DNA from: Lophium mytilinum
Lineage: Eukaryota
Length of the DNA: 47,093 nucleotides
Assembly: GCA_010093605.1 (NCBI GenBank)
Contig: MU004185.1
Span: 2,377,334 to 2,424,426 of the forward strand
Direction of reading: 5' to 3'
The notes under the pieces are model-generated. The model saw nothing but the letters and a program-made list of their open reading frames with translations, did not search any database and was not told where the DNA came from. Shown in pieces: positions 4,823 through 47,093 of the stretch (position 1 is the stretch's first letter; each line of letters starts with the position of its first letter). The translations under genes and the position numbers were made by a program.

Positions 4823-6597
4823 TTCCCGTTCTTTAGAGCGCCGCAGCACCGGCGCTCCAAGGCCCTTCACGTCTTTTATAGACTAGCCTCAAAATTGGTA
4901 GGAGGGGCGCCCACCAGGGTTCAAGGCGGGCCGGAATGTTCTAGTCGGGCGCCTTGGGACTGTGATTGCTAAAGGGTGTGTTTTAAGGTTTGGACAATCA
5001 GAGCACTGCATAAGGGAAGCTGCCGCTCAACTTAATCATCAAGAAAATTCAAGCTGGAAGGCTGAGGTTGTCGTGGGAGGCTTGGGTACAGAATTACGCT
5101 ATACTACAAACTTACTAGCCGAAAGCTTGCCAACAACTTTCTTCATCCGCCAATCACAAAAGACTAGTAGCATTTTCTATGACAAGGCCAATGCATCTTT
5201 GTATAATAATTTCCTTCGTCATCATATTCTTAGTAATAGAAATAGCGCATAGAGTACAGTGTAAATGAAACTAACAAATAACGAACAAGGGAGAGGCAGG
5301 GGATTGGAGCCATGCACGTGCCACGGTTAGGCATATTACAATTAGAAGCTCCCAATTATAGCTCCATAACTTGCGGTGCCGTCACAGGTTCTCACTCTCT
5401 TACATGCTATATACAAATGTGTTAGTAGAGTGAATGCAGCTCTCCGCCCTGCTACCGTATGTACTGAGATTGTTGAGACGGGGCTCTTGGCGCGCCTAAA
5501 CCTATCCGAGTTACTGCAGGTCCAGTCTCGGGCTGTCAGGCGCCGATAGGCCCACATTTCAGCTCGATCGCGGCGAGCTGATACGCTGGACCAGGTATGC
5601 TTAAGGTAGCGGTGCCAAGAGCCCCGTCTCAACAATCTCAGTACATACGGTACTACAAAGCTACTAAATTGCAAGATCACTAGTCGTTGTAGCACAAGAA
5701 GCTACACCGCCGCTAATTCCTACGGATCTTTTCCTATGAATCCGTAAAGCTCTCTAGGGTATATATTTGGTTATTATCAAACAAAACCCCCTCGCGTCAC
5801 GTCGATGTTATTATAGATTGACTGAAATAACTCGAATGGTTTCATCGCACTTAGCAACTCTAGTAGATTAAGCTTCGTGGAATCCCAGTCTTATTGTGGT
5901 CTTTCTAGGAGGTGCCAGCGGATCCGAACACCCCGTTAAAGAAACCCTTTAAACTTGTAAAACTCCTCTGCTTGACTTCAGCCGCATGAGTGGATTGTGA
6001 GGCTATCTTAGTACTGCGTCTTCTCCTGAAAAATGATGAGGGTGGAAATATAGTAGGTGGCGGTGTTTGTCGGTGGTCCAGGTAGTCCGTTCGTAGTATG
6101 GCTTAAGGCGACTTCTGGCTCTTGCTCCGGTCTTCAATAGCTATCAATCGGCATTTTCGGTGAGCGTGGTCTGTATTTGTCATGTCCTGGGATATGGTAT
6201 ATTTCAAGAACAAGGGAACGGGTCTATTTTCATGTCCTGTAGTCTCATCCACGCTTTCAGTCCTCATACCGGGTCCACGCGGAGTTCTATTATTTTGGGT
6301 TCTGGCCAAGGCGCTCCCGTATCTCGTCGAGGCAGGGAAAATGCCAGGCGAAGACTGCGTTGGGATGGGTTGCGACGATGTGCTCTTGCAACACAGTGTG
6401 ATGGATAGACGTCAAGCATCTAAGGCTGGAAAGGATGTTGAACGATATATGACTCTATTGTGGCTAATATCTGAAGAAAGTATGGAAGTGTTTTACCATG
6501 GACAGTTCAAGATGCTTTGAATGTCGGGAACTTGTAAGCCGGTTCTCCTATCCTGGGTGAGTTCCCATGAAGTAAATTGGAAGAGAAAAGGACAATC

Positions 6598-7578
6598 TTA
6601 CGCTGCATCATCACCCTTATTGGAGGTGATTCTGTGAACAGCGGCCTGGAGCTTCTTGTCATTGGCGTCTGTGAAGCCTTTCATAACGCTCTCAATGTCG
6701 ATAAGGACGTCGCCTGGCATGTCTGTTCGCTGTTGGATCGCGAAGTCGCCGAACACGCCGAGGAAGTCTTCAAGCCTCCACTTATCGATGGGCGGGCATT
6801 CATACTCGCCGTCTTCGGTAGGGGCAAGCAAAAACCTCAGATATGAAATTGCACTGAAAAACGGATTCCACTCCGGATCCATTTCGAAAGAACAATCAAG
6901 TCCCATGATTTCATGAATACTCAAATAAGCACGCGAGGCATCTTCAACGGCCAAGCAAACGATACCTGTCTCAGAAGTGGAACCATCAGCAACATAAGAC
7001 ATTCCAAAATCGATAAGGACAAGATCTGGGAGTCCAGAGAAATGCTGCTGAGACGGATTTAGCATGAAGTTACTAGGATGCAGATCGCCATGAAAGATTC
7101 GAAAGCGATTCAAACACGCTACGGCTTCAAAAAGTTGGAGACAGATGTGTGCTATAAACCCCTTAGGGATGTAGCCAAGCTTGCGTACAGATGTCAATGA
7201 GAATTCCGCTACATTTGGGCCAAATATGACGCCCATTGCGTACGAAGGTTTGTTGGTAGGGTCTTGAAGGTCGCTTCCCAGAAGGTTGATGAATCGATGT
7301 TGCAGATGGCCAAGTTCCAAGGCCTGGACGGCCTTCAAAACCGCCACTTCGTTCTCGATTTCCTCCTTGCTATCAGCATCCTCTTTTTTCAACCGCTTGA
7401 CGATGCACAGTTGTGCCTTGACTTCGGAAAGGCTGAAAATAACTTTCCCATTGCTAATCTCTTCGCAGTATGTTTGAGGTAATGAAAAGTACGTGCACCC
7501 GTAACGACCTTCGCCCGCGCCAACAACGTCTATGTACCTCATCGGGTCTTCTACTTCGGGGATGTTGACACCGGCCAT
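6598..7578 (-). CDS. Atypical protein kinase-like protein, 326 aa, intronless
   Basis: Gly-rich VGAGEGRYG, beta3 Lys CIVKRLK, helix-C EEIENEV, catalytic loop FHGDLHPSNFML and VLIDFG. No APE motif, and the C-lobe is divergent. Confidence 0.75.
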   Translation of the reverse strand: MAGVNIPEVEDPMRYIDVVGAGEGRYGCTYFSLPQTYCEEISNGKVIFSLSEVKAQLCIVKRLKKEDADSKEEIENEVAVLKAVQALELGHLQHRFINLLGSDLQDPTNKPSYAMGVIFGPNVAEFSLTSVRKLGYIPKGFIAHICLQLFEAVACLNRFRIFHGDLHPSNFMLNPSQQHFSGLPDLVLIDFGMSYVADGSTSETGIVCLAVEDASRAYLSIHEIMGLDCSFEMDPEWNPFFSAISYLRFLLAPTEDGEYECPPIDKWRLEDFLGVFGDFAIQQRTDMPGDVLIDIESVMKGFTDANDKKLQAAVHRITSNKGDDAA

Positions 7579-8406
7579 CTGACCTGATATCTTGAAAGTG
7601 GATATTGGAGCTTGACCTGATTATGTGCTCTGAAAAGGAGAAAACGTTGTTTCCGATCGATTCGTCGGGATGCGCAGCTGGATTTATGTGCTGCAGGTGT
7701 TATTGTAAGGCAACAACGCAAAATGTGAACTTTTGGGAAAGGTATACAATGCAAGGTGTACAATGTTAGCACATTCGAGCACACTAGAGAGCACTGTGCA
7801 TCTGAGCGCCCGTCATCAATGAACTGCAAAAGGTTTCCCTACTTGAAGACATGAAGTGGACTTTCTTATGGCCGTTAGACTGGATCTCTTCCTCAAGTGC
7901 CGTGGTTCTATGCATACGTTCTTTCTGTCACTGCTCTCAGATGGCAACGGTGAAGAGCCGGACGAAATGGAAGTAGTGGGGTGCGACATAATGAAAGTAT
8001 GAGCCGGGTGAGTATCTGTGCTAGCTTGAAGTTAGTAAGGTGTTTATGTTGGCTGCGATTGAATGGTCAGGTATTCGAATGTACGAACTGAGTATTGAGG
8101 TGAAAATCATACACTGAAGTTGAGAGAGTTACAGGGCTATAGAATGTCAAAATTGAACGCAGTACGCCTTATCCAACGATGTACTTTTACATCGGATTGG
8201 AATATCGAGATTATGGAAGAAGAAGAAGAAGAAGATCTAATGATGCTGGTAACATTTATTAGTCTGCCTCGGGAGATTCGTGGAGCAGATGGGACGCAAC
8301 CACATCCTGGAGCTTTCGCTCGAAAGTTGACAAAACTCTTGCTTTCTAGAACAATGGCAATGTCCTCAACGACTGCAGACTCCTTTTGAGCTCGGCGCTG
8401 GGGGGC

Positions 8407-27349: not shown

Positions 27350-29157
27350 ATGAAGATCAACGGTCTTGTAGCCATTATTTCCCTCGCCGGCTCGACGTAT
27401 GCTTCAAACTACACAGTCGGCCAGACCGTTGACACAGGAAGTGGTTCAGTCGTCGGCCATGCTGCGCCCATCGCCAGTGCTGTTTCTGAGTATTTAGGCA
27501 TTCCGTATGCCCAACCACCGGTCAAGAATTTGAGGTTTGCTCCTCCGCTTGCCTACACTGGGAACTCGACCATTAATGCGTCAGCTTTTGTATGTGCCAA
27601 CAGCATCGCCCCCGTATTCTTTAAGGTGTACTCATAACGATTAGGGTCCTTCGTGCACCGTAGCCAAAAGTAACGCTCTCAGCGCGTCCAATTCATCAAC
27701 TTCTCTGAACCTCACGGCTGCTGGAAGAATCATGGCAGCGGAGATCGGTGAAACGGGACTGAATCTCACACTTAGTGAGGACTGTTTGACAATGAACGTC
27801 TGGACGAAGCCCCAAACTGGTGATGCCAAGAAAGCCGTCCTCGTCTGGATGTACGGCGGATTCTACACCATCGGCTCCTCTGCCATACCTCTTTACAACG
27901 GCCAATTCATCGCTGACCAAGAAGACGTCGTCGTGGTTACCATCAAGTAAGGATTCTCCGCACTCTTACCGTCCTATTCCCCGGACCAGGGATCAAGTCT
28001 CACACGATATCTCCAGCTACCGCGTCAACATCTGGGGCTTCCCCTCCTCGCCAACACTTCCTCAGAACGTCGGCCTCCTCGATCAGCGGCTAGCCCTCGA
28101 ATGGATCCGCCAAAATATCGCCGCCTTCGCTGGTGACCCCTCTCGTATCACGCTGATGGGCCAGTCAGCCGGCGCCGGATCTGCGGACCTATATTCCTAC
28201 AAGTGGACAGAGGATCCTATCGTCAATGCCTTCATCATGGAGTCAGGCACCACGGAAGTCGTGGTCCCACTGAACGCATCCACGGGTGCAGAGCAGTGGT
28301 TCAATGTCTCCGCGTCGCTCGGCTGCGGTGGAGCTGATACGGAGGAAGCGCAAGTCTTGGCCTGTATGCGCCAGGTCAATTCGTCCGCTCTTGCATCCTC
28401 CCTTGGCTCAAACTCCTTCTCGCCTACCATTGACAACACCCTAGTGTTCGACAACTACACTGCTCGCGCCGCCGCAGGCGATTTCATCAAAAAGCCTCTT
28501 CTAATCGGCAACAACAACAACGAACCAAGCGTCTTCCGTCTCATAGCCCTCGCGAAAGGGGAGGACCTGCCAGACGCTTACTGGCAAGCTGTTGGCCTGA
28601 AGACATTCGACTGCCCTTGCGCTGCGCGCGCAAACGTTTCTATCTTCAACAAGGTACCCACCTGGCGCTATCGCTTCTTCGGAGTATTCCCAGACACCAA
28701 CCTTACTACCAACCCGGACAGTGGCGCCTATCACGGCAGCGAGATCCCCATGATTTTCGGCGTGCCGCCCGCTGGACAGGGCATTGCAAACAGCTCGCAG
28801 CAAGAGCTCGCGCTCATGAGTTATATGCGCGGCGCCTGGACGACGTTTGCCAAGGATCCAGTCGCGGGCCTGAGCAGGTACGAGGGCGGATGGCCAAGTT
28901 ACGATCCGGCGCAGGATACGCTGATTCGACTTGGCTTTGGTGAGCAAACAGGGACTAACGTGGGCTTGGCTGGAACATATGATGCTCCTTGTGGAACGCT
29001 GTTCTCGAGTATTTCGGGCGTGGGGAACGGAAAGAGCAGTGGGAATGGCACGTTGATATCGAACACCTCCAGCGCGGGTGTAGGATCAGCCCCCTGCGGC
29101 TACACTGTAGCTTTCGTAGTTGGGATCTTGTCGCTTGGGTGGATTTGCGCAATATAG
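27350..29157 (+). CDS. Secreted type-B carboxylesterase/cholinesterase-like hydrolase, probably GPI-anchored; join(27350..27589,27645..27946,28017..29157), 560 aa
   Basis: Signal peptide, YLGIPYAQPPVKNLRFAPP, SEDCLTMNVW, WMYGGF, NYRVNIWGF, nucleophile GQSAG, GNNNNE and GAYHGSEI. Ends in an S/G-rich linker plus hydrophobic tail. Confidence 0.92.
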
Positions 29158-29590: not shown

Positions 29591-30200
29591 TAGTAATACG
29601 CAGATTGGTGACCTATGAAATCCCGGGCACAAGGAATTAGGGAAGAGTATGGAGGTCTGTACAAAGTACAAATGTTATATGTATTTCTTTGCAAACCTAT
29701 GACGCATATGCTTGAGGCGCTTGCTGAGCACAAATCAAGATTTGGTTTCGTCTGCTTTCCCGACTGATATGTGATAGCCCTTAATCTGCTGTCGCAACGA
29801 AGTGAACCCCCCACACTACTTCTTTTGACCAGCCAGTCAGAAGCTGCCATTCCTGCCATGGGCTTTGGGCAATCCATACTTTAGTAGTATGTAGTTGCAT
29901 GAGGCATCCAAGACTCCATTTACCGCCTGGAACAAAGACTAGCCGAGAACAAGTCATCAGAATGGAATCGGTGGGGTCTGGGTTGACGTCATGAACTCGA
30001 AATTCACTTCAGCAAGCCTTCGTGGCACGAACCGCTCTTGATGCATCAGAGAAGTGCAGCACGTATAGTTGGAGTCAGGTACATAGTCAATTGGCCAGAT
30101 GCTCGCTTATCTGTTCAGCTCGTTGTACAGGCCGCTGCGGACCGTCCGCTACCAGACACCCTGCTGCCGTCGTAACGGTAACTCTCCCGACTTCCTTTCA

Positions 30201-31876
30201 TCAGATTGAAATACCATTGATTCTGGCCAGGATCTGCTCTATGAACCTTATGCCGACGAGAATTCCATCTTTGTCCTCCTGGTTTGCATCCCCAAACATT
30301 TCATTCCTCGGATCCAGACACTCTAGACACGATGTTACAACCTCAGTATACACGTCCCCGCAGCGTGACGGAAGCTTCCTCTTCGCCATGCCCACGAGCT
30401 GCTCCTTGGTCCGAAGACGAGTACTTAGATGGGCAGCCTCGAAATCTGCATCGCAGATCTGGATCTCCGAGGAAGCCGGCGTAACAGGTGCAGCGGTCGG
30501 ATTCAATCCCGGATAGTGCACGAATGACTGCCATAGGCCTATCTCCAGCAAGCAAACACCAAGACTGTAAATGTCGTGCTGCATTACATAGCGATTCATT
30601 ACATTCGTTCCTTGGCGTTCCGGATGGCGATATAAGTTTCGATACCAGGCCGGGTCTCCGAGAGGTTGGTCTGCTGGTTTGAACGCCGGAATTGGTTGAA
30701 GCCAACTAGGAAACTCATGCCGAGCAATGAATCTCTGCTCGGAAATACGAGGATGTTCTCTGGTCTGATATTCTTGTGCACGAAGCCGGAGGTGTGGACG
30801 AAGCTGACCGAGCGAATTAACTGCTTAGCGATTCGCATAAGAGAATTGAGACTAGCACCAAAACTTCGGTCCAGAAGCAGTCCGCGAAGGCTAGCTGGGA
30901 CAGCGCTATTTTGAGGAGTCCCATACAGAAGCTCAACTCCGTTGACAGCCTTGGTCGCGGATTCTCGATGTCTGACCAGACCCCTGCAGCTGAGCAGGCC
31001 GAATGTAGATGGATCGATTTGCTGAAGTATACCCGCCAGCGATTCCACGTCAGCTTTAATCTTGGTAAAGTCCAGTGGTCCATGACTCCCATCCGGGGAT
31101 GTCACCGCTTCCGAAACATAAAGCCTGGTTTGGCCACCGTTCTCTCGAATGATTGCTCTCGCTGTGGAAAACATGATTGGAATATCTTTCGAGTTCTCCA
31201 GCGTTGCCCATTCAAGGTAGAGGCGGGCGCGGTAGTCTGGATGTGTAGCTGAACGAAGCTTCCACATGTTCGTAAGTGGATTTAGTTGGTTCTTCAAGAA
31301 GTCCATTTGCATGTTTGGCTCATTTGCTAATTCTCTGTTTGCTTGTCGAAGTTCGAGGTCCATGATTTTATTGCTGTTGAGTATCATCAAATACCAGGTC
31401 GGATCAAAGCGGCTTTGCCATGCCTCCAGCTCAATGACTAGTTCTCTCAGACTGTTTTTTATCGCCCACTTCCATTTTTTGAGGAAATCCGTAATCCTTT
31501 GCTTAGGCGAACGGTCATTCATGTCATTAACGGAGTTCTCCAGCGCAAGCTGAGTGATGGCTTGACGTAGTTTGCCTTCCAGTATATGTAACAAGTTCAG
31601 TTGACTTCTTGCCAGCTCCTTTTCGAGTGACTCGGAGATTTTCGAAAGAAAACGCATCTGAGACTCGATTCTGATCCAGATAGCATCCACCAACACCGTT
31701 TTCTCTTCGATTTCTCTGTCATGTGCTCTAAATCTTTGGCAGATCTCTTTGACTTCGTGAGCTGATCTGCCATTAGGCAACTTAAGTAAGCTATGAACGT
31801 CCTTTACCAGCACTATTCTCACTCACCTGATGCATACGTCGACCGCGCCAACGACCGCGAGTGCCAGTTCGGCCAT
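30201..31876 (-). pseudogene. HeLo/HELL-like N-terminal domain + pseudokinase (MLKL-like architecture); exons 31876-31827 and 31766-30201; 1-bp frameshift at about 30660; 538 aa if repaired
   Basis: Exon 1 MAELALAVVGAVDVCIR, then a helical bundle ending in KWKWAIKNSLRELVIELEAWQSRFDPTW. Kinase-fold motifs FGLLSCRG, FVHKNIRPENIL, LVGFNQFR; after a frameshift GDPAWYRNLYRHPERQG, QHDIYSLGVCLLEIGLW and YTEVVTSCLECL. Exon total is 1616 nt, one base short of a multiple of 3. Confidence 0.82.
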
Positions 31877-32520
31877 GGCTGACTGAGTATATCAATCGAA
31901 CACACGATTTGGGGATGAATCACCACGCTGGATGCACTCCCATTTTCAATGGAACGGACAGCGGTGAGGCAGACTCGTTCATCTTCATCTTTGCGACTCA
32001 AGCCCATTGCGAGGCTATGTTTTGGCGCCGACCCCCACGCCCAGCCAGCCACTTTGTGGCTATGCACAACTCCAAGCGCCGGGCGCATTCGTTGCGGCCT
32101 CAAAACGCGACCCCCTGTTATCCTGAACCAACCGCGTATCTACTATATACTGACACGGACGCCCGGCTGAGCACTTGTCTGATCGTCTCGTCTGGTCGGA
32201 AATCTACCCTACCATTGGACCCGTTGCACCGATCACCAATGACAATGGTCTCGGTGCGTCTCCTTTGACAGTGGCATCAATCCCATCGTTTTCATGCTCT
32301 TTTGAGTAACGAGCTCTTTTTCTGTTTTATTGCGGTCAATCTGCTTTGAAGCCCTCTTTCGCATCTTCCGTTATCATCTCTGCGTAAGTAATCGGGATTT
32401 CCTATGCGTAAGGGGAAACAGCCACTAAAGACGGAGCGGTATTTACATCCTCAAAGAAGTTCAAACAGGATCTGATTCTCTTCCAGCTAATTCGATAAAT
32501 ACTACCTGAGTTGGAACACG

Positions 32521-34821
32521 ATGGAACAGGTTCTAGAGCTTGTCTCGGCTTTGAAGTTGGACACGGAATTCTTGCCCGAAGGTGTGAAGCACAAGAGACA
32601 TATACCGAAGCCGAGATCAAGCCAGTCTTCCAAAGCAGCCAAGAAACGCAAAAGACCCAACAGAAATCTGTTTCAAATTGGGCAAGAGTCGCCTATGCAG
32701 ATCGAAGAAGAATCACTTGTCCATATCGAAGAGCGGTCGCCGACGAAAATCGACGCAGAGTCATCTCTTCCGATTGAGCAGGCCGTGATGACCGAGTTTG
32801 AAGAGACTTGGGACATTGAGCCAAGTTCAATCATTGGCCAGGGTGCTTTTGGAATCGTGCGGTTTGAGCGACGTCGACCACAGATGGTTAATCATACACA
32901 GACTGCTCACAATCAGGTTCGAGCAGTAAAAGAGATTAGGAAACTGGGCACTCCAGATTACATAAAAGAGCTCCAAGCTGTTGCACAGTTCTCGCAGGCT
33001 CAAGTATTTCAAATCGGTTCTCTCCACGATGAAAATACTGGCTGCTAATTTCTCCATCAGTACGAGCTGTATTTTGTTCAAAGCTATGGATGGTTTGAGA
33101 ATCAGGAGTCTGTGTTCATTACGATGGAATACTTGCGCCTTGGAGATTTGTCGCGCTTCAGAGACCGTAATGGCCCATTCCCCGAACAGTCGGCTGGGCT
33201 TATCGTGCGACAAGTCCTTGAAGGGATACGATTCATGCATGAGATCAATTTTGCTCATAGAGATTTGAAGCCGGGTGTGGGTGATACAATCTTGATGTTC
33301 ATGTCAACCCAGGCACTCACAGGAACGTAGAACATCTTAGTAGCATCCACATCGCCATGGGCTGTCAAAATAGCAGATTTCGGCATTAGTAAGCAGTGCA
33401 ACGAAGGAACGCAGTTGCAAACACAACTTGGTACTCCCGAATACATGGCACCCGAGCAAAAAGGTCATTTCAGAAGCAGTCAAGGTGTCACTACGTACTC
33501 GCTCTCCGTCGATATCTGGGCCATTGGTGTGATAGCCATGGAATTGATCCTAGCTCATCCATTCCTTTACCCCTCTGATCAGGAAGATTATACCCGAGGT
33601 ATCAAGCCGCTCGAATTTAATCACCCTTCGCAAATAGGTATTTCCGAGTCATGTCAAGATTTCGTCAAGAGCTTGTTAACTCCAAATCCTATACACCGAC
33701 CATCAGCGGAGGCTGCAATTTCCCATTCATGGTTCGCTCAAGTAGCGCTCTGGCTGAATGAAGATGATTCGTAAGTGCTCAAGAGTTACCCAATGATCGC
33801 GTCGGATTCCAACCAATTCACAGACTCTTCGTTCAAGATGAAGCTATCCCATCTCAACGCCGCGATGCTGCTACAGCTTCCCCAATGCCATTGCTCAGCT
33901 GGTCTACCTTCGGAAATCTACGGCTTACGAATAGATCGCCAAAAAGGACTCGCAACACGAGAAGTTCTAGTAATTCAAAAAGCAGTCGCAGCACAATAGG
34001 CTCTCGCAGCACCCAAAGAACTCAAAACCCATCAAGGACGTCGGAGACAGAGGTTACTATTCTGGATACTTATCAGGGACGATCTTTTGATGTCAGGCTT
34101 CTGGCTTCATCATTTCGACATCTCTCCCTGGATACCGTAAGTCTCTTTGCTCCAAACTCACGAACATTGTAGTGGTATGACATTAATTCTGCGCGCAGAC
34201 AAAATATTTCGTCTTGCGATCCGATAACGAGGCGGATATGGAACTGTGCTTTGCCCAAGGCAGGTGGACAGCGCTACCAAAGGCAAACAAAATGCTCGAT
34301 AACGGCTATCGGAGATCAGGTGGAAATGTGCTTATTTTCTTTTCGGTGGTCGAAAGGTACGTCCTTACTATCTTACATTCGCAGATACCACCGCTAATAT
34401 GGAAGACAAAAGTCGTAAATTCTACGGTATTGCTAAAATGACAAGTCCCGTGGACTGGAACACCACCGATCCCGACTGGGTACCCAGACCCGATGGCCAA
34501 GTTTACCATGGGTGAGTATCAAGGAATATTTTTCACTCGGGCCAGTTCTCTAACCTTGCGGTGACCAGGCGATTTACCGTTGATTGGGTTTGTTTGAATG
34601 AGCTATCCTTCGACAGAATCAAAGGCGTCCCAGCTTATCTTGGGAAGGGCCGCCTCGCTGTAGCCGTTATGGATGGGCAGGCGATTTGCCCTGAATCGGG
34701 ATACGAAATATTGAGGGCATACTCAGAAGAAGACCGAAGATCGCCGTGTAGCTTGGAGAGACGACAGATAAACGATGTCAATATGGAGGTTACGCTTGCG
34801 AGTTCCACTGTGCCGTACTAG
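32521..34821 (+). CDS. Ser/Thr protein kinase fused to a C-terminal YTH domain; join(32521..33003,33061..33276,33331..33770,33824..34136,34199..34356,34413..34511,34569..34821), 653 aa
   Basis: Kinase motifs IGQGAFGIV, RAVKEI, KELQAV, ITMEY, HRDLKPGNIL, KIADFGISK, GTPEYMAPE and DIWAIG. YTH-like: KYFVLRSDNEADMELCFAQGRWTA...NVLIFFSVVESRKFYGIAKMTSPVDW...DW...GRFTVDWV...LSF...MDGQAI...GYEIL. Six GT-AG introns give a stop-free 1962-nt CDS. Confidence 0.85.
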
Positions 34822-35388
34822 TGGCGCGACTTCATAGCAACTTTACTCGCTGGCAGCCAATTATTACAGCAGTTGACGCTCTGATGATTTCAGAAAACGA
34901 GTGTTATGGCGGTGCAGAGTTTGTCTGTGAGAACTCTTCCAGGCGACGTCATTAGGATCAGCACCCTTGACAAGGCGGAGTAGACCCTGAACGTGGCGGA
35001 GCAAGTTAGCCTTGCCGTATTCATCTCACATATATATCACACCAAGCTTAGATCTCCATCTAATAGACACAGATAAGTCGCGGCTTTGCATTTCTCGTCA
35101 TTCAAAACAAAAGGTCCAGCAAATTCTGCGTCCTCGAATCCGGCATCATTGACGGAAAGTGGAGATATCGCAAGACAGCACACGTTGCACCTAGGGATTA
35201 TATCGAGAGCAACATCTTTGCTTTCTTACTCGCATCTGACTCGTCGCAATGGCTGCAAAAGAGCCGTCCTCTTACTCGTCCGAGACCCGTCCAGAATACA
35301 CGCCATCCACCCTCCCTCATACCGCACCGTCGCCTCAACCCTACCCGCAACAAGACAAAACCAGACACAAGATGCACTCGCCGCAGCG

Positions 35389-36828: not shown

Positions 36829-38563
36829 TTATAGGGGCTAGAGGGTTAGAGTTATATAGAGAGAAGCTAGTTTAATATAGAGAAAATTAATCTTTAAGAA
36901 TTATATATAGTATAACCTTATACTACTATATTTAACTACTATAATATAAAATAGAGTATATATATAAAGAATAATACTTAAAATATAATATAATAGTATT
37001 CTATTAACTTTAATTTAATTTATAAGCTATAGTAGTAGCTTAAGATAGATATAAAGAGGCTATAGAGTATATAAATATAAAATAGAAATTACTTAAAGAG
37101 TTTAGTATAAGAATAGCCTTATACTTAAAAATTAGTATAACTACTACTATATATAACTACTATAATAAGTATAGAAGAAATATATAAAAAATTATATATA
37201 ATATATAATATAATAGTAATCTATTAACTTAGAATTAATTTATAGACTATAGTAGTAGTAGTAGTTATATATAGAGGTAAAATTCTAAATAATAAAAGTT
37301 ACTTAAAGAGTTTAGTATAATACTAGCCTTATACTTAATAAAGACCTTAACTAGCGCTATATAGAACTACTATAATATAAAGTTAAAAATATTTATAAGA
37401 AAAATTACTTATTATATAATATAATAGTATTATAGTAATTTAGAAATATTTTATAGGCTATAGTTATAGCTCTAGATAGATATAAAGAATAAAAAAAGAG
37501 GGCGGCTAGTAGCATAGAGTATAGCTCTATAATTAAGTAGCCTTCTACTACTATATATAATAACTTCTAGATATTAAAATACTATAATAGAGCTATAATA
37601 CTATATATAGTATATATAATTAAATTTAAAGTATTATAGAAAAGGTAAAGTTCTAGTAGTAGATACCTATAGAGGGTAATAGATATAATAGAAAGAGTTT
37701 TATATTATAATAGTCTTACCTTAGTATAGGTTACTACTAGATAGTATTCTTATATATTAGAAATTTTAGCTATATTAAATAAAATATATAAAGTAAAGAG
37801 TAGAATATAGTTTATATAATATTTATAGATAAAGTAATTAATAGAGCTACTATAGAAAGCCTTTCTACTAGAGCTCTTTTCTAGTAACCTTAACTAAGTA
37901 GCTATATCTATAAGAGGTATTAAAATAGATTAGATAGAGTAAGCTCTATAATAAAAATATTAATAAATTCTTATTTTTTACTAATTATACTCTCTAACTA
38001 CTTTCTACTTCTTAGCTTTATATTTTAAACTATTATCCCTCTTCTTACTATATCTAGTAGTTAGTATAGAACGCCTCTAAAAGTACTAGAATAAAGAAGA
38101 GTAAAAAGTAGCTAAATTATACTTAATAGTAGATTTAAACTAATATAAGAGAAATAAAAAGAAAAAGGCTATAGACTAAATAGCTATAGTAGAAGAGGCT
38201 AGTAAGCCTACTTTTACTTCTATTCTAGAGCTATTTCTAATTATCTTTAAAAACTCTAGAAGTCTTTCTAGTATAAATATTAGGGCCCCTTATTCTACCC
38301 GCCCTGCGCCTATACTCTCTTAATAACTAATAATATCTTAAAAGCCTTTAGAGAAAACTATTATATAACTTATAATTAGTATATCTTTTATAATCTTTTA
38401 GTATTTATAGTTAGATTCTAATAAATTTAAGTAGAACCTATCTTAATAGAAGAATTATTACCTTCTACCTCTACTTAATCTATATAATATACTCCTCTAT
38501 AGTAGTCTACTTATAGTAGTATTTATTCTACTATTTCTTCTCTATCTATTTAATCTATATAAC
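36829..38563. mobile_element. Unclassified repeat element A, copy 1 (heavily RIPped, interrupted at 38563)
   Basis: Colinear with 42257-43992 (offset about 5428). Both copies begin TTATAGGGGCTAGAGGGTT. Confidence 0.85.
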
Positions 38564-39257
38564 TATTATAGTATAAACCTAAAATAATAATAATTATATA
38601 CTAAGGTTATATACCGCCCCTTATATAACCTAAGTAAAACGCTAGCCTAAGGCGCTAGACTATAGCCTATATACTAGCCTTAAACTATAACCTCTTAAGA
38701 GCTTCTAGCTCTCTCTCTTCTTTTTAGCTTAGATTTTTATAATAGTTAATATATCTTATTACTTATATTATATTAGCCCTCTATATAATCTAAGCTTACT
38801 TTTCTATACTTAAAATCTTATTAATTTTTTCTAGAACTCTATTATAAGATCTAGGTATTTTTACTAAAACTAATTAAATATTTTTCTACTAGCCTAGCTA
38901 TATAGCTATATATAGTATCTAAGTTTAACCTAGTAGACTATAATCTAGTACTACCCCCCTTAAATAAGCTAGTTAATTTAATAGCTAGGCTTTAAAATAA
39001 TTTAAAAACTCTAGGCGCTATAAGTACTAATCTAAATACTTTAGAAGAACTATCTATTATCTATACTTCTATAACTCTAATAACTACTAGTAATAAAAAG
39101 GCCCGCTATACTACGCGCCTTATATACTTTTAGGGCGCAGCTAAAAGCTCTTCTATTCTAGCTATTATTTCTAGCTTCTACTATAGAACTAGAGAACTAA
39201 TTCTAAATATTTAAAAATAGACCTAAGCCTTCTTATAGACCTTAGATAATACTTAGC

Positions 39258-39310
39258 GTACTAATATCTAGCGCGCTAATATCTAGCGCGCTAATACCTA
39301 GCGCCCTAAA
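39258..39310. repeat. 15-bp tandem repeat (CTAGCGCGCTAATAT)x~3.5 within the Gypsy element
   Basis: Directly visible: ctaatatctagcgcgctaatatctagcgcgctaatacctagcgccctaaa. Confidence 0.7.
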
Positions 39311-41847
39311 TACTTAGTAGATAATCTAGTTAATACTACTAAACTCTTAAACTAGAACTAGAACTAGACTATTACTAATAAACTTAATCTAGATTATAAC
39401 TCTAATAATAAAGGCGGCTTTATTACGCCTAGTATAAACGCCCTAGATAAGCGCGCTATTTAGTTTATAACTAAGGATAATATAAATAAATAAACTAGAA
39501 GTAAGCTATACTTTACTTATTACTATATCTCTATAGTAGACTAATAAGTATCTATTCTAGTTATATACTATAAAACTAAATAGGTTTTAGATACTAAACC
39601 TAAGTATATAGATATTTCTAAAAAGCTATAAAAAAGTAACCTCTAGCGCTATATTTAGCTACTAGTTTAGCTTCTTAACTATTATACTAATAGTACTATA
39701 ACTATTAATATTATAGTTATAAATAAGACTAAGTTTACTACTATAGTAAATAAGAATAACTTTATATAGTAGAAATCCTTCTAGAAGCTCTATATAGAAT
39801 ATAAAGTTAGCTTTAAAAAAGCTAATAATAAAGATAAGCTCTATAATAAACTCTAGAATAAGTATTAAAAGTATAAGTAGAATATAACTAATAGTACTAC
39901 TATAGTAGAATAAAAGTTAAAGGCCTATTATACTAAATAGTTATAGTATACTACTAGTACTTACTAGGCTAATTTTAAGCTTAACTAAATATACTTATAC
40001 TATAACTACTAGTATAGAAAGTATTAGACCCTTAAGAGAATGTATAAATAGCTTACTACTTATATTAAGAAACTTAAATAATAGCTTTATTAATAGGGGG
40101 CTTTATACCTATAGCCTCTAGACTCTAACTATAATTCTAATAATAATAGTACTTATTCTTTTATACCTATAGTTCTACTTTATTAATACTCTATTAGCTA
40201 GCCTCTATAGTTTAACTCTATTAAGAGTAAGTCCGCTACTCTATTTACGCCTATTTAGGACTCTAGTGCATATATAGTAATATATTACTACTCTAATCTA
40301 GATAAGTTTAGTAGTAGTAATAAAAATAAGCTATTCTACTAGTAGTAGTATATATAAGTACTTAGTAAGCTAGATATCTATATACTACTATATACTACTA
40401 TATATTATTATATAGTATATATCTATAATAGACTTAAAGAAAAAGCCTTTAATATAATCTTCTATTAGGCTAAATCTAATAGTAATAAGCTATACCTCTC
40501 TATAGAAAAACTAATTAATAACCTAGATAAGATCTATAGACCTTTTAATAAGGCGGCTAATATATATACTAATTTATATAATAGTAAGTTTATATAGAAA
40601 AAAGATAAGCGCGTTATAATCTAGATAGAATACTTTAATACTAGTATAGCCTCCCTCTACCTTAAAGACTCTAGAAAGATCTACTATATATAATATAATC
40701 TTACTAATAGCCTTAAGTATAAGGCCGCTAATAGATAAGATAGTAATATAATAACCTTTATTATATTCCTCTAAACCTTAAAATTCTAGCTTAATATTAT
40801 TAAACTAAATAAGAATATCTATAAAAATAAGAATACTTCTAAGTCTATGCATAATAACTATAAAGCTACTAGCGCTAGATTAACCTCTACTATACCTTAC
40901 TACCCGCTACTTACTAATATAATGCGTATATCTAAAAATAATACTAGTAATACTACTTTAAGTACTTCTATAAATAACTTTCTAGGCCTCTTTAGTTATA
41001 ATTACCGCACTATTATACGCCTTAAGTAGCTAGGTTACTATTAGAACTATCTAGAGTATAAATATATAGCTAATAGTAACGCCCTATATATTAGCTAATA
41101 GCTAGTCCCTATCTATAAGGTTAGTAGTCTTACTAATAAGATTAGTCTTACTAGCGTTAATATTAGCGCTATAAATACTAGCTCTATCTATAATAAGATA
41201 ATAGAAAATACCTAGTTTTTAGTAATAGTTACTACTAAGAACCTCTAATAGCCTTTAATAATAGAAAATTAAGAGTAGTTATAGATAGAATTACTATTTT
41301 AAAATAGAAGATTAAACTAGCTATTATATATATATCTACCCTTATACTATAGCTAGTTAATAGTAAATAGTTTAGCTTCTTAGATAGAATTCTCTAATTT
41401 AATTCTATTTTTAACTTTTTTACTACTAAGATTCTTTCTAATATAGAATTAGGCTTTTAGTTTCTTTATTTAAAGACTGTGCGTCTTTATAAAATATCTA
41501 TCTAACCCCTTTTATAACCTATTATTCTTAAGCTTACTAATAGTAAGCTCTTAGTTATACTAGACTATACTATAGATATTACCTTTTATATTAGTAACTA
41601 CTATAATACTATTACCTACTATATTATAGATACTAGATAATATAATATAATTCTAGATATACTCTAGCTCTAGCTTTATAACCCTATAGTTAGCTTTAAA
41701 AGGACCTAGCTAGTCTTTTAATTTAACTACTATATATCTAACTATCTTTATTATAGTAGGCTAGTTATTATAAAAAGCCTTATCTATTTAAAATATATTA
41801 AAATTAAACTATACTAGAACCTAGGTAATTTCTATAGCTCTTAATAT

Positions 41848-41910
41848 AACTCTAACTCTAACTCTAACTTTAACTCTAACTCTAACTCTAACTCTAATTC
41901 TAATTTTAAC
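41848..41910. repeat. (AACTCT)n hexamer repeat, probably RIPped (GACTCT)n encoding Asp-Ser
   Basis: About 10 units downstream of the protease relic. A TG->TA change converts GACTCT arrays into AACTCT. Confidence 0.7.
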
Positions 41911-42256
41911 CTTAGTCTAGTTATAGAAGGCCCTAATAATATAAAGAACTCTTTTTAGCTTAATTATAATAGTAAGCCTCTTCTACCTAAACTAGTTTTA
42001 CTAAATAAGCCCCTAGTATATAATATTTAATTTATCTCTATATACGCCTACTCTATTATAGCTAAATATAATAAAAATATAGTAATAATAGTTACTTTAT
42101 AAGATTTTAAATAGTTATATTAACCTTTAGAGACTAATAAGTAATATATCTATAAATAATAGATTATAAATCTAGTAGATATTACTACTAAGAACTACTA
42201 ATAATTTAAAGAGAAAATAATAAAATTACCTTATATAAAGAACTAGCTTTAATAAA

Positions 42257-45200
42257 TTATAGGGGCTAGAGGGTTAAAGTTAGGTAGAGAGAAGCGAGTT
42301 TAATATAGAGAAAATTAATCTTTAAGAATTACGTGCAGCACAACCTTGCACCGCCGCATTTAACTACTATAATATGAAATAGAGTATATATATAAAGAAT
42401 AATACTTAGAATGCAATGCAATAGCGTTCTATTAACTTTAATTTAATTTACAAGCTATAGTAGTAGCTTAAGGTAGATATAGAGAGGCCGCAGAGTGTAT
42501 AGGCACAGGATAGAAATTACTTAAAGGGTTTAGCGTAAGAATAGCCTTGCGCTTAAGAATTAGTGTAACTACTACTGCATGTAACTACTATAATGTAGTA
42601 TAGAAGAAATATATAAAGGATTATATATAATACATAATATAATAGCAATCTATTAACTTAGAATTAATATATAGGCTATAGTAGTAGTAGTAGTTATATA
42701 TAGAGGTAAGATTCTAAATAATAGAAGTTACTTAAAGAGTTTAGTGTAATGCTAGCCTTATACTTAATAAAAACCTTAACTAGCGCTGCATGGAACTACT
42801 ATAATATAAGGTTAAAGATATTTATAAGGAAAATTACTTATTATACAATGTAATAGTATTCTAGTAATTTAGAAATATTTTATAGGCTATAGTTATAGCT
42901 CTAGGTAGGTATAGAGGGTAAGAAAAGAGGGCGGCTAGTAGTATAGAGTATAGCCCTATAATTAAGTAGCCTTCTACTACTGCATATAATAACTTCTAGA
43001 TATTAAGATACTATAATAGAGCTATAATACTATATATAGTATATATAATTAAATTTAAAGCATTATAGAAAAGGTAAAGTCCTAGTAGTAGATGCCTATA
43101 GAGGGTAATAGATATAATAGAAAGGGTTTTACATTATAATAGCCTTGCCTTAGTATAGGTTACTACTAGATAGTATTCTTATATAATAGAAATTTTAGCC
43201 GCATTAAATAAAATATATAAAGTAAAGGGTAGAATATAGTTTATATAATATTTATAGATAAAGTAATTAATAGGGCTACTACAGGAAGCCTTCCTGCTAG
43301 GGCCCTTTCCTAGTAACCTTAACCGAGTAGCAGTATCTATAAGGGGTATTAAAACGGGTTAGGCGGGGTAAGCCCTATAATAAGAATATTAATAAATTCT
43401 TATTTTTAACTAATTATACTCCCTAACCGCTTTCTACTTCTTAGCTCTATATTCTAAACTATTATCCCCCTTACTACTATACCTAGTGGTTAGCATAGGA
43501 CGCCCCTAAAAGTACTAGAATAAAGAAGAGCAAAAAGTAGCTAAATTACGTTTAATAGTGGATTTAAACTAACGCAAGAGAGATAAAAAGAAGAGGGCTA
43601 TAGACTAAATAGCTATAGTAGGAGAGGCTAGCAAGCCTACTTCTACTTCTATTCTAGATCCATTTCTAATTATCTTTAAAAACCCTAGAGGTCTTTCTAG
43701 TATAAATATTAGGGCCCCTTATCCTACCCGCCCTACGCCTACGCCCTTTTAATAACTAATTACACTTTAGAAGCCTTTAGAGAAAACTATTATATAACTT
43801 ATAATTAGTATATCTTTTACAATCTTCTAGTATTTATAGTTAGGTTCTAATAAACTTAAGTAGAACCTGTCTTAATAGAAGAATTATTACCTTCTACCTC
43901 TACTTAATCTATATAATATACTTCTCTGCAGCGGTCTACTTATAGTAGTACCCGTTCTACTATTTCTTCTCTATCTATCTAACCTACGTAACCTACATAA
44001 TATACTCCTCTATAGCGGTCTATCTATAGTAGTATCTATTCTACTACTCCTCCTCTATCTACTAAACCTACCTAATATTCTACTCTAGGGCGGGCTACTT
44101 ATAGTAGTACTTATTCTCTTACTTTTCTAACCTCTTAACCTACTTAACTAATATAACTTTCTTATACCTAGTAGTTTACTAGCAGTAGTATATACTCTAG
44201 TAAGTTAAGAGCGGCTTAATATATACCTAAAATTTAAAGCAATATAGAATTAATAGAAGCTGTAGAGTAAGATTAGAGTAATAGTAGTAAGTATACTATT
44301 ATATAGACTATTAAGGGAGCAGCAGTTAAAGAAGAAGAAGAAGCGGCTAAAGAAAGTAAAGTAAATAAAGAAGTAGCCTAAGCAGATAAAGAAGTAGAAG
44401 AGGCAGTATTAGAGTTACTATTACCTACATCTTCTGCGTTATCTCCTTATATACCTGCATTACTACCGCCTCTAGATACTAGAGAGGTGTTACCCTCTCT
44501 ATTACTACCTTCTAGCGTAGGGACACCTTAGTAAGCCGTAAATAATAATAATAGAGCTCTAGGCTAGGTTCTACCCGCTATATGCTATCTCTATAAAGCG
44601 TTTCTTAAACCTATAGCTATACTATATATATATATAGGCGTATATACTATCCTTACCCTCTAGAATACTCTATAGATAGCTATAATACTATGCATAAGTT
44701 TACGCGCTTAATAAACTATAGCGGCTTCTACTCCTGCATAACTAGAACTAATAATATAACGCTAAATACTAGCCCTTATTACTATATTACTACTCTATAT
44801 ACTTGCGTAAATAACTAATAAAGAGATTATAGCGGAATTATTCTTAGCGTAATAAAATAAGGCTGTAGAAGTGCTCTCTAGAATAGACACTATAGAATAA
44901 ATAGATAAGAAGGAAATGCTAGCTAATATAAGTTGGTTTATATAACTAGCGTATAATAATAGTTAGGTTTAGATAGAGTAGTACGCTGCCTTATTATCTC
45001 TCCGCCTAACGCTAGTAACTAAGGTTGTAGAAGAGGAATTTACCTAACTTAAGAATAAGGTAGAAGCAGGTGTAGATATAGATAAGGTATTAGATAATAG
45101 AGTTAAAGAGGGTAGAGAAGATATATATATATAAGAACAGTAAGATACTATAGATAAATTACCGGGTTTACTTAATAAAGTTACGCTAGAGAATTAAGGT

Positions 45201-47093
45201 AGTAGGGTAGATAATACAGCCTTAAATAGTAAAGGCAATAGCAAGAGTATAGATAAAGTTATAGATAAGATAGACCCTAATAGGTAAGTATTATAAGCCC
45301 TATAGCTTATATAAAGCTAATATATATAGGCATAATAATCTATTAGTAAATACTCTATATATAGTAAGTATAATCTAATTAGCGTTAGAAGTCTAGTATA
45401 CTTACTATATATCTTAACTCTTTCTATTTAGATAATATAGTAGCTAATATTATAATATAGCAAGTAACTATATAATAGTTTCTTAGAGCAGATCCCTTAG
45501 CTAAGTTACTAGCTTTCTCCTAGCTTAGAACCTTCCCTTCTAATAAGAGCCTATTATAGCTAATACAGCCTTCTATCTAATAAGCTAACTAGAGCTATTA
45601 TAGAGAGAGGATAATTCTAATAACTTTAATAATATCCTATAGAAATTAATATTAAGCGGAGAAACTAGTAATATAGAAACTCTAAGGCTTAGTTTTATAA
45701 GGTCTAAAGCTAGCTTTATAGTAAATAAAGAGATTAAAATCCAGCGAGTGTATAATATTAATAGCGTTATTATTAGTATCTCTACTTTAGCAGCCTATAA
45801 TTTATACTTCTTACTATCTCTATAACTATCCTTTCTCTAAAGTATTACTTAAAACTAACGCATTATAATATGCGGCTATAAGCTCTATATAATAAAGTAG
45901 CTTTATATAGGGTATAGGTATAAGTATTAATTTAAAACTTATATATTTTTCCCCTAGATACTAACACTAAATAAGTAGAAGGGCGATACTTTATATCTAC
46001 TAGATATAATGCAAGCAGCTTAGCTTAATAATATTATCTTACCTGCAGTAAAGTATACTCTAACACCCAATAAGTAGTAGTATATACTATACAGTTTTAA
46101 TATTATATAGGGTAAAGTAAGCATTAAGAAAGAAAAATATATAATATTATCTAGAGACTCTTATATTAATACTAAGTATATAATTCTATAGTATTAACTC
46201 TAAGAATTCTAGGACTAAGTTCTTTACAACGCAGAAAACTTTATAGAAATAGATACTATACCTAAAGATTTATTTAAAGGAGTATTTCTAGTAGTCTTAG
46301 GTTATAATCTAAAAATGGCATATAAGTCCTTAAGTATAATTTAAAGCAGGGATTAGCTACTATGTACTTTAACTACTACTTTTAATAAAAACCTAATTAA
46401 TATGCTAGATAAGGGGATATAGGTTAACTATAGATATAAAGATGTCCTAACTACTAATTAGCTAGATACCGGGGTTACCCTTCTACGTAAAACTAGCTGC
46501 AATAACTACTAGGCCACTTACTTCTATAATAGCGGAAAAGAAAAGATTTATATAATATTATACCCCTACTATCTTATCTAGGGCGTGTTATCTCTAACGG
46601 TAGAGCTCTAAGTAGGCAACTGTAGCCGTATTAGTAGTATAGCATATAATAAAATCTATAATAGTAATAAGATTATACTTAAGTTACCTATTAAGAATAT
46701 TACGCCCTTTTATAATACTTAACTAGAAGCTCTTACGTTTTTAACTAAAATAATTAAGTAGTAGTTTAAAGCGGCAGGTAGCTCTAGAGGATTATTAAAA
46801 AGAAAATAGCTTTAGAATAGTCTTGCTACTATTCTCTAACGCTACTATACTATACTCTAGAGAGATAGACACTTATCCTATAGAGTTTAAACTAAGTTCT
46901 AAGTACTTCTTACTATACTTAAGTAACTTAAAGAAAGCGCAAGTCCTAAATTTACTATAAAGAATAGGCTAGATAATAGTAGTAAGCCTTATTACCCCTA
47001 CTAGGTTCTTTCTATAGAAGAAGTTAATGCCTTTACTATTATAAACCTTAATTACTAGGTATTTCTTTTCTAGGTACTATCTCTTTAGGTTAC
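42257..47093. mobile_element. Unclassified repeat element A, copy 2 (less RIPped); continues as unclassified RIPped DNA to the window end
   Basis: 42257-43992 aligns to 36829-38563 but retains many CA/TG/CG dinucleotides. It has internal ~215-bp and ~80-bp tandem repeats. The right end is not identified. Confidence 0.75.

Follow-up and report, generated by a model that had tools for sequence, protein, structure and literature searches.

In the animal RIPK3-MLKL system an active kinase is paired with a partner made up of a four-helix bundle, a brace and a pseudokinase, and MLKL carries a GFE motif. Plant MLKLs (AtMLKL1-3, Pm13) likewise combine a bundle, here of HeLo type, with a brace and a pseudokinase, and no linked activating kinase is known for them. 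Fungi possess two-gene death clusters in which a sensor and an executor are encoded side by side, as with NLRs and HET-S/HELLP or protease-repeat proteins and gasdermins, and in which the sensors include WD40 and ankyrin (ANK) types, according to the passages of a 2025 review that treat them (PMC12881547). The same passages mention HELL-pseudokinase proteins in a single sentence and name what stimulates and activates the death pathways of fungi as a major open question (PMC12881547). Here we analyse a divergent gene pair in a 47,093-nt stretch of the Lophium mytilinum genome (assembly GCA_010093605.1, contig MU004185.1, positions 2,377,334 to 2,424,426), hereafter the window, to whose positions all Lophium coordinates refer. 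Gene A (31876-30201, minus strand) encodes a helical head followed by a pseudokinase, and gene B (32521-34821, plus strand) encodes a protein kinase with a C-terminal YTH domain. We think it fairly probable that the two form one unit of a widespread fungal two-gene module that resembles RIPK3-MLKL in its working, with a kinase side that is not homologous. An original prediction made from the DNA letters of the window had proposed an RNA-sensing, necroptosis-like module at this position; its observation is confirmed and its interpretation is partly supported.

The comparison with the animal system is one of architecture. Sequence and structural models suggest an active kinase paired with a bundle-brace-pseudokinase partner, and the gene A pseudokinase, like that of MLKL, is without the catalytic Asp, has G-F-x in place of D-F-G and keeps a conserved Ser/Thr in its activation loop. 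Unlike in RIPK3-MLKL, the kinase is CAMK-like rather than RIPK/TKL-like and carries exchangeable sensor-type domains, and the genes are physical neighbours read in opposite directions; the biochemical link between their products is one that we infer. The bundle, brace and pseudokinase of gene A also recall the architecture of the plant MLKLs. The pair has in common with the fungal death clusters an adjacent putative sensor and executor; it differs from them in the proposed signal, which would be phosphorylation and not amyloid templating or proteolysis, in a sensor without NOD/NACHT and, compared with the amyloid-signalling NLR/HeLo pairs, in a gene A C-terminus that is a pseudokinase. The YTH domain of gene B resembles those of the N6-methyladenosine (m6A) readers YTHDC1, YTHDF1-3 and Pho92/Mrb1 in matching Pfam YTH and in having the two cage tryptophans as well as an aromatic residue in third place. 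Unlike these readers it is fused to a protein kinase, and its RNA binding is predicted.

Searches of the published literature, with most subscription journals outside their reach, returned no kinase-YTH fusion and no linked kinase/HeLo-pseudokinase gene pair, in agreement with the statement in the original prediction that no such module was known to have been described. The term YTH occurs 0 times in the text of the 2025 review, and its relevant passages contain no partner kinase or gene pairing (PMC12881547). The architecture class of gene A has already been mentioned in print; the linked kinase and the kinase-YTH fusion appear to be new as far as the literature was searched.

The two genes stand head to head, as had been noticed at the outset, with the ATG of gene A at 31876 (minus strand) and that of gene B at 32521 (plus strand), 644 nt apart. 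We scanned metagenome contigs with an alignment of gene A relatives (called effectors below, after their putative role), which gave 80 loci in 66 groups at 97% DNA identity. A kinase like the gene B product (P0121) was found on the opposite strand within 3 kb in 31 of the 40 groups whose contig extends 2 kb or more upstream, in two of the four groups with 1-2 kb, and in 26 of the 34 loci with at least 3 kb. Control regions gave a kinase within 3 kb downstream in 1/32 cases and a kinase 3-10 kb upstream in 1/22. Synteny of the pair in other fungi, a test named beforehand, is therefore strongly borne out, by the 31 of 40 loci and by seven named species, Lophium among them, in which both proteins apparently lie on one contig (judged from equal longest-contig sizes). 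The two genes have consecutive locus tags in Xylaria hypoxylon (E0Z10_g8265/g8266) and in X. multiplex (GQX73_g8878/g8879), and the pairing is kept across Dothideomycetes and Sordariomycetes.

Distances among the effectors are correlated with those among their partner kinases (Mantel r 0.82 over 38 pairs; 0 of 2000 permutations as high), and 25 of the 38 pairs have the same nearest neighbour in both distance matrices. Read at the level of these sequence distances, the correlation shows a long-standing joint inheritance of the two families, not contact between the proteins. A complex predicted for the Xylaria hypoxylon pseudokinase (residues 180-526) and kinase (residues 36-335), run without using alignments, scored 0.02 against a mark of 0.34, a value that counts neither for nor against contact. 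Two loci deserve separate mention. At L003 an extra Pkinase open reading frame (ORF; 6008-6787, minus strand; Pfam E 4.8e-27) lies past the partner kinase, in the zone 3-10 kb upstream of the effector, which suggests tandem kinases at this locus. The effector copies at L003 and L004 are at least 97% identical in DNA; a divergent kinase is present at L003 and none is found in the 8.9 kb upstream of L004, which may reflect either presence/absence variation or an assembly difference.

Gene B encodes 653 residues in seven coding exons. Its model was derived from splice signals, with six introns of 53-62 nt each, and its translation is the same as the deposited protein P0121 at every residue (653 aa, 100% identical). 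RNA contigs were taken from run X3, which is labelled 'RNA?', whose contigs proved spliced, and which comes from a sample and study separate from those of the DNA runs discussed below. A 2242-nt contig of this run joins all seven gene B exons at exactly the modelled borders, and the kinase and YTH domains are thus part of one mRNA. The protein kinase domain (residues ~97-368; 32809-33735) is encoded by exons 1 (32521-33003), 2 (33061-33276; Pfam Pkinase E 4.6e-15) and 3 (33331-33770; Pkinase E 1.7e-26). Exon 4 (33824-34136), joined in frame in the RNA contig, encodes a Ser/Arg/Thr-rich linker that matched no Pfam family. The YTH domain (residues ~485-620; 34199-34719) follows in exons 5 (34199-34356; Pfam YTH E 2.6e-10), 6 (34413-34511; E 0.002) and 7 (34569-34821; E 0.0025), with the stop codon at 34819-34821; all of these features are on the plus strand. 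The RNA contig is the sole source for a further 103-nt GT..AG intron in the 5' untranslated region (UTR; 32384-32486, plus strand).

The kinase domain has all catalytic motifs. Across 25 kinase-YTH proteins, G106, G108 and G111 of the Gly-rich loop, K137 (VAIK) and E150 (alpha-C) are nearly invariant, and H227-R228-D229, D249-F250-G251 and A273-P274-E275 are invariant; from these intact motifs the gene B kinase is predicted to be catalytically competent. The nearest solved kinases belong to the CAMK group (STK17B, 7.9e-32; RAD53, 2.1e-31; CaMK1D, 1.1e-29; also STK17A and DAPK3), and the gene B kinase is therefore not a RIPK relative. In the YTH domain, exon 5 alone scores 40.6 bits against Pfam YTH (PF04146; cut-off 22.1), and exons 6-7 extend the match to model position 133 of 135. 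Among solved structures YTHDC1 is the closest (E 1.2e-14), and W507 and W559, both invariant in the 25 kinase-YTH proteins, align with the two tryptophans of the YTHDC1 m6A cage. At the third cage position, 568, Lophium has Y, where at least 90% of the 25 proteins have W. The domain is predicted to have a complete m6A-type aromatic cage and to bind RNA. The initial description of an intact-looking kinase carrying a YTH domain holds: the catalytic motifs are complete, the mRNA is a single spliced molecule and the cage is intact.

The fusion itself is a recurrent one. Among the relatives retrieved with exon 3 at E<=1e-20, 25 of 26 proteins have Pkinase and YTH together, from hosts that comprise Lophium, Pseudogymnoascus, Emericellopsis, many Xylariales, Lasiodiplodia and Sordariales, and a homologue search with the YTH region alone returned three proteins, all of them kinase-YTH fusions. 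The lone exception, P0123 from Venturia inaequalis (585 aa), is the third-closest kinase relative (75% identity in exon 3) and has no YTH annotation in Pfam, which may be due to domain loss, a different C-terminus or a fault in the gene model.

We surveyed the C-termini of the partner kinases at 30 loci by matching single ORF pieces past the kinase domain to Pfam at E<=1e-3 and E<=1e-5. WD40 was recognised at ten loci (L018, L020, L023, L026, L029, L032, L038, L060, L061 and L077), ANK at two (L022 and L051), KA1 at one (L040) and a weak SH3 at one (L035); YTH is present at two loci (L001 and L017), confirmed directly, and no domain was recognised at the remaining 14, several of which have extensions of 350-570 aa. 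The variation that had been expected at this end of the kinase, YTH versus ankyrin or WD, is thus what the survey found. Fungal NLRs and gasdermin-controlling proteases likewise combine a signalling domain that stays constant with exchangeable repeat or reader domains, as the relevant passages of the review describe (PMC12881547). At L032, L038, L040 and L077 a single ORF contains both the C-terminal domain and the last part of the kinase domain. The YTH domain at L017 is split by an intron, was missed by the ORF-piece survey and was found on direct inspection; the 14 loci at which nothing was recognised may therefore hide split domains. There was no NACHT or NB-ARC among the Pfam matches of the partner genes. 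The partner kinase at L040 (7142-8545, minus strand) ends in KA1 (E 2.5e-10), a module that binds phospholipids in MARK/AMPK-related kinases, and its neighbour is an effector that would attack membranes. At L001 an ORF adjoining the kinase-YTH/effector pair (5390-5812, minus strand) matches the HET domain weakly (E 4.4e-4, below the cut-off).

Gene A consists of a short first exon, an intron and one long exon, all on the minus strand. Exon 1 (31827-31876) contains codons 1-16 and 2 nt of the next, the start of a hydrophobic N-terminal helix (MAELALAVVGAVDVCI). A 60-nt GT..AG intron follows (31767-31826), and an RNA contig joins 31827 to 31766 across it (X3 record 4); genes A and B are thus each transcribed and spliced. 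In the gene A family this intron, after codon ~17-19 and inside the first helix, is kept in nine of the ten loci examined and missing from L024 (frame-breaking stop at codon 17-19); the check covered L001, L002, L008, L012, L017, L019, L032, L062, L068 and L073 versus L024. The long exon encodes the rest of a four-helix bundle (residues ~18-146; 31379-31766), brace-like helices that link the bundle to the pseudokinase (residues ~147-195; 31232-31378), and the pseudokinase N-lobe with the first part of the C-lobe, as far as the activation-loop Thr (…HKNIRPEN…GFNQFRRSNQQTN; 30665-31231). The structural assignment relies on an AlphaFold2 model of the intact Mytilinidion orthologue P0002 (81% identical), which has a pLDDT of 86.2 and a pTM of 0.88, with the bundle helices mostly at pLDDT 85-95. 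The model contains four long helices (residues 2-30, 34-63, 66-91 and 104-146) and two shorter ones (150-166 and 175-190), and then a kinase fold (196-538) that aligns with many kinases at Z about 20.

Motif counts over 76 family members place the kinase fold of gene A among the dead kinases. The position of the HRD Asp is N in 69 members, S in four and D, G and K in one each, and that of the DFG Asp is G in 76/76. Position 383 in the activation loop, eleven residues past the G of the G-F motif, is T in 64 and S in 12. With its catalytic and metal-binding aspartates lost, the gene A family is a true pseudokinase. At the other end of the protein, small or hydrophobic residues make up 73% of positions 3-17 across 50 family members, versus a background of 46%. 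The family is large: a profile built on the 76 relatives, run against 1.84 billion proteins, matched 1036 cluster representatives at E<=1e-30, and the best 150 of the 1036 that were listed are mostly 450-600 aa long and match nearly the entire profile.

The Lophium copy of gene A is frameshifted, as had been anticipated, and the letters are the same in DNA and RNA contigs. At the break the orthologues P0002, P0003 and P0007 read FNQFRRSNQ(Q/P)TNL(L/F)GDPAW; the window is one base short in the first Leu codon of the orthologous ...QQTNLLGDPAW..., two codons past the activation-loop Thr (deletion site 30662-30664). Read without correction, the frame encodes 405 aa before it meets a stop at 30599-30601. 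The remainder of the pseudokinase C-lobe is encoded in the -1 frame (30201-30662) by 153 stop-free codons followed by a stop at 30201-30203. Over 30001-35000 the contigs of two DNA runs, probably from the source sample, and of the RNA run, from another sample and study, contain 0 differences and 0 gaps, and the 1-nt deletion is therefore real in this strain. The deposited gene A model P0001 (523 aa, 99% identical) conceals the break by excising 45 nt (30670-30714, minus strand) as an 'intron', and the X3 contig 30102-30755 is collinear with the DNA, with the stretch 30670-30714 unspliced; our analysis corrects this model. With the supposed intron the model also loses the activation-loop Thr and the G-F-x motif. 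That the break might be mended in the transcript was considered and rejected, the letters of the RNA contig being those of the DNA. Identity to P0002 is 90.2% after the break (153 codons, residues 386-538) and 81.2% before it. Because the codons past the break are free of stops and this close to the Mytilinidion orthologue, the deletion is judged to be very recent. Loss of dangerous genes by fresh breakage is common. With a frameshifted effector beside an intact and transcribed kinase-YTH gene, the module is probably not functional as a pair in the sequenced Lophium strain.

Our proposal of how intact pairs might work starts from what was observed, namely gene structures, spliced transcripts, conserved motifs, fold classes, divergent linkage and co-diversification. 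Binding and its ligand, the phosphorylation, the attack on membranes and the role in the organism are all put forward conditionally. The C-terminal domain of gene B, exchangeable between WD40, ankyrin, KA1, YTH and others, would be the sensor or targeting part. A ligand bound to it would activate or cluster the kinase, the ligand of YTH being methylated, possibly foreign, RNA. The kinase would then phosphorylate the invariant Ser/Thr in the activation loop of the gene A pseudokinase. Freed from the hold of brace and pseudokinase, the bundle would oligomerise and permeabilise membranes, and the outcome would be regulated cell death or a defence response. The most specific form of this proposal is a phosphorylation-driven, necroptosis-like fungal cassette in which modular sensor kinases directly switch on linked MLKL-like executioners and in which the YTH trigger is (aberrantly) methylated RNA of a mycovirus or transposon; we put it forward tentatively, as a possibility that we would at present rather doubt than accept.

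Much depends on the helical head of gene A. In the ESM-Atlas the nearest named clusters of residues 1-195 are HeLo clusters (PF14479; 0.94 with 178/256 features in common, then 0.92 and 0.89), after which rank Helo-like and SesA clusters, and some sources label gene A relatives 'het-s domain protein'. We built a head-only model of the intron-less relative L024 (204 aa, pLDDT 81.4) and ran a VIA search with it against 48,161 representative chains. The top 34 include the potato Rx coiled-coil domain (Z 10.9), a wheat resistosome (8.3) and MLA13 (7.8), together with the human MLKL N-terminal domain (Z 8.0 over 119 residues, root-mean-square deviation 3.4) and AtMLKL3 (6ka4; Z 7.9 over 120 residues), all at values within the range that helical bundles reach without kinship (Z below ~13 is common). 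HET-s HeLo is absent from the best 50 matches listed in the wide VIA search. The full-length effector model matched kinases only in Foldseek and VIA, with no MLKL among the matches listed, and the family-alignment profile matched only kinase domains among the best 60 solved structures listed. The HeLo/HELL-like domain plus pseudokinase of the original prediction therefore stands as a four-helix bundle and a dead kinase; its assignment to HeLo or HELL finds no counterpart in Pfam, whose HeLo, HELL (Helo_like_N) and SesA models match 0/76 family members even at E<=5. On balance the head is probably homologous to the HeLo superfamily.

The Pfam result weighs against the RIPK3-MLKL-like reading of the pair, as do several others. 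Foldseek found no match to the head model in the PDB at E<=0.001, and designed bundles match that model as well or better by VIA Z; the model itself was built on L024, which is 27% identical, and not on the Lophium protein. Nine of the 40 loci have no divergent kinase: L025, L027, L053, L055, L059 and L069 are without a kinase, L066 and L067 have an upstream kinase on the same strand, and L078 has downstream kinases. Co-variation of distances is also produced by shared descent. In the comparison with solved kinases gene B is CAMK-like and not TKL/RIPK-like, and the window's own effector, being frameshifted, is uninformative on activity in this organism. The cell-death role of both families is likewise one that we infer.

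Several of these observations would also suit other explanations. The genes could encode a linked kinase/pseudokinase signalling pair with no death role, in which the pseudokinase is an allosteric partner or scaffold (as in STRAD-LKB1 or KSR-RAF), the head is a coiled-coil adaptor, and the YTH domain recruits the kinase to methylated cellular mRNAs for RNA metabolism, for example in development or meiosis. Linkage and co-diversification suit any obligate partnership, the head has no HeLo Pfam match and its bundle matches are unspecific, and the housekeeping fungal YTH proteins PHO92 and Mmi1 are known (PMC10826363, in the part that deals with them). Such a pair is harder to reconcile with the exchangeable WD40, ANK and YTH C-termini, the hydrophobic first helix and the neighbouring HeLo clusters, or with a patchy distribution and a fresh inactivating mutation, which are typical of fungal non-self and cell-death genes and not of core signalling pairs; we regard it as unlikely, with a chance of being right that still deserves attention. 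That the adjacency is fortuitous, or reflects a shared promoter only, is conceivable in compact fungal genomes, where divergent gene pairs are common. Given a divergent kinase at 26 of 34 loci against 1/32 and 1/22 in the flank controls, and a pairing kept across Dothideomycetes and Sordariomycetes with a Mantel r of 0.82, the probability of this is close to nil.

Two further explanations accept a functional partnership and change its logic. The kinase might act as a guard, keeping the effector phosphorylated and silent until loss of the kinase, or capture of its sensor domain by a pathogen, frees the effector, with YTH as an integrated decoy. The invariant Ser/Thr and the linkage are equally compatible with inhibitory phosphorylation, and a passage of PMC12258605 considers integrated-decoy kinase domains in connection with fungal NLRs. 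The YTH cage is conserved over 25 proteins, which argues for retained ligand binding. In MLKL, the sole characterised analogue, phosphorylation activates, and we consider guard logic decidedly unlikely. The pair might otherwise be an allorecognition system of heterokaryon incompatibility, whose polymorphic kinase and effector alleles kill only in mismatched combinations after hyphal fusion. Fungal two-gene death clusters overlap allorecognition systems, as the parts of the review concerned with them state (PMC12881547), at L001 the pair adjoins the ORF with the weak HET-domain match, and the nearly identical gene A copies of L003 and L004 (at least 97%) differ in their kinase neighbour. The partner proteins change little from one species to another (81-90% identity with Mytilinidion), unlike hypervariable het alleles, and allorecognition seems to us very improbable. 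The RIPK3-MLKL-like module remains the reading that we prefer, at the strength given at the outset.

The intergenic region common to both genes (31877-32520) is covered from each side by RNA contigs of run X3, records 4 and 5. The 5'UTR of gene A extends to at least 31982 (spliced contig) and that of gene B begins at or before 32122, so that the gap between the contig ends is at most 139 nt, although contig ends are not equal to true transcript ends; because of this short distance, 31877-32520 likely holds a bidirectional promoter shared by genes A and B. The flanking genes are ordinary, with a carboxylesterase at 27796-29157 and, farther away, a methyltransferase, a solute symporter, an alpha-mannosidase and an epimerase. 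Beginning about 2 kb past gene B, G+C drops to 20-33% over the last ~10 kb of the window (37001-47093). This AT-rich block looks like the product of repeat-induced point mutation, and its position therefore places the pair at a compartment border. A 340-aa ORF at 6601-7620 (minus strand) matches Pkinase only weakly (E 6e-10, profile positions 12-153) and is possibly a further kinase-like or pseudokinase gene.

For HELL-pseudokinase proteins, the linked active kinase is a concrete candidate activator and the invariant activation-loop Ser/Thr a concrete candidate phospho-site, and the naturally intact pairs make both testable at the bench. If the proposed mechanism is true, a kinase that switches on a four-helix-bundle pseudokinase would be a recurrent solution outside animals, and the logic of fungal two-gene death clusters would take in phosphorylation beside amyloid and protease signalling. 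A number of sensor domains, an RNA-modification reader among them, would be opened to study, and the Lophium type of pair would represent the first eukaryotic death switch to read RNA modification through a YTH domain.

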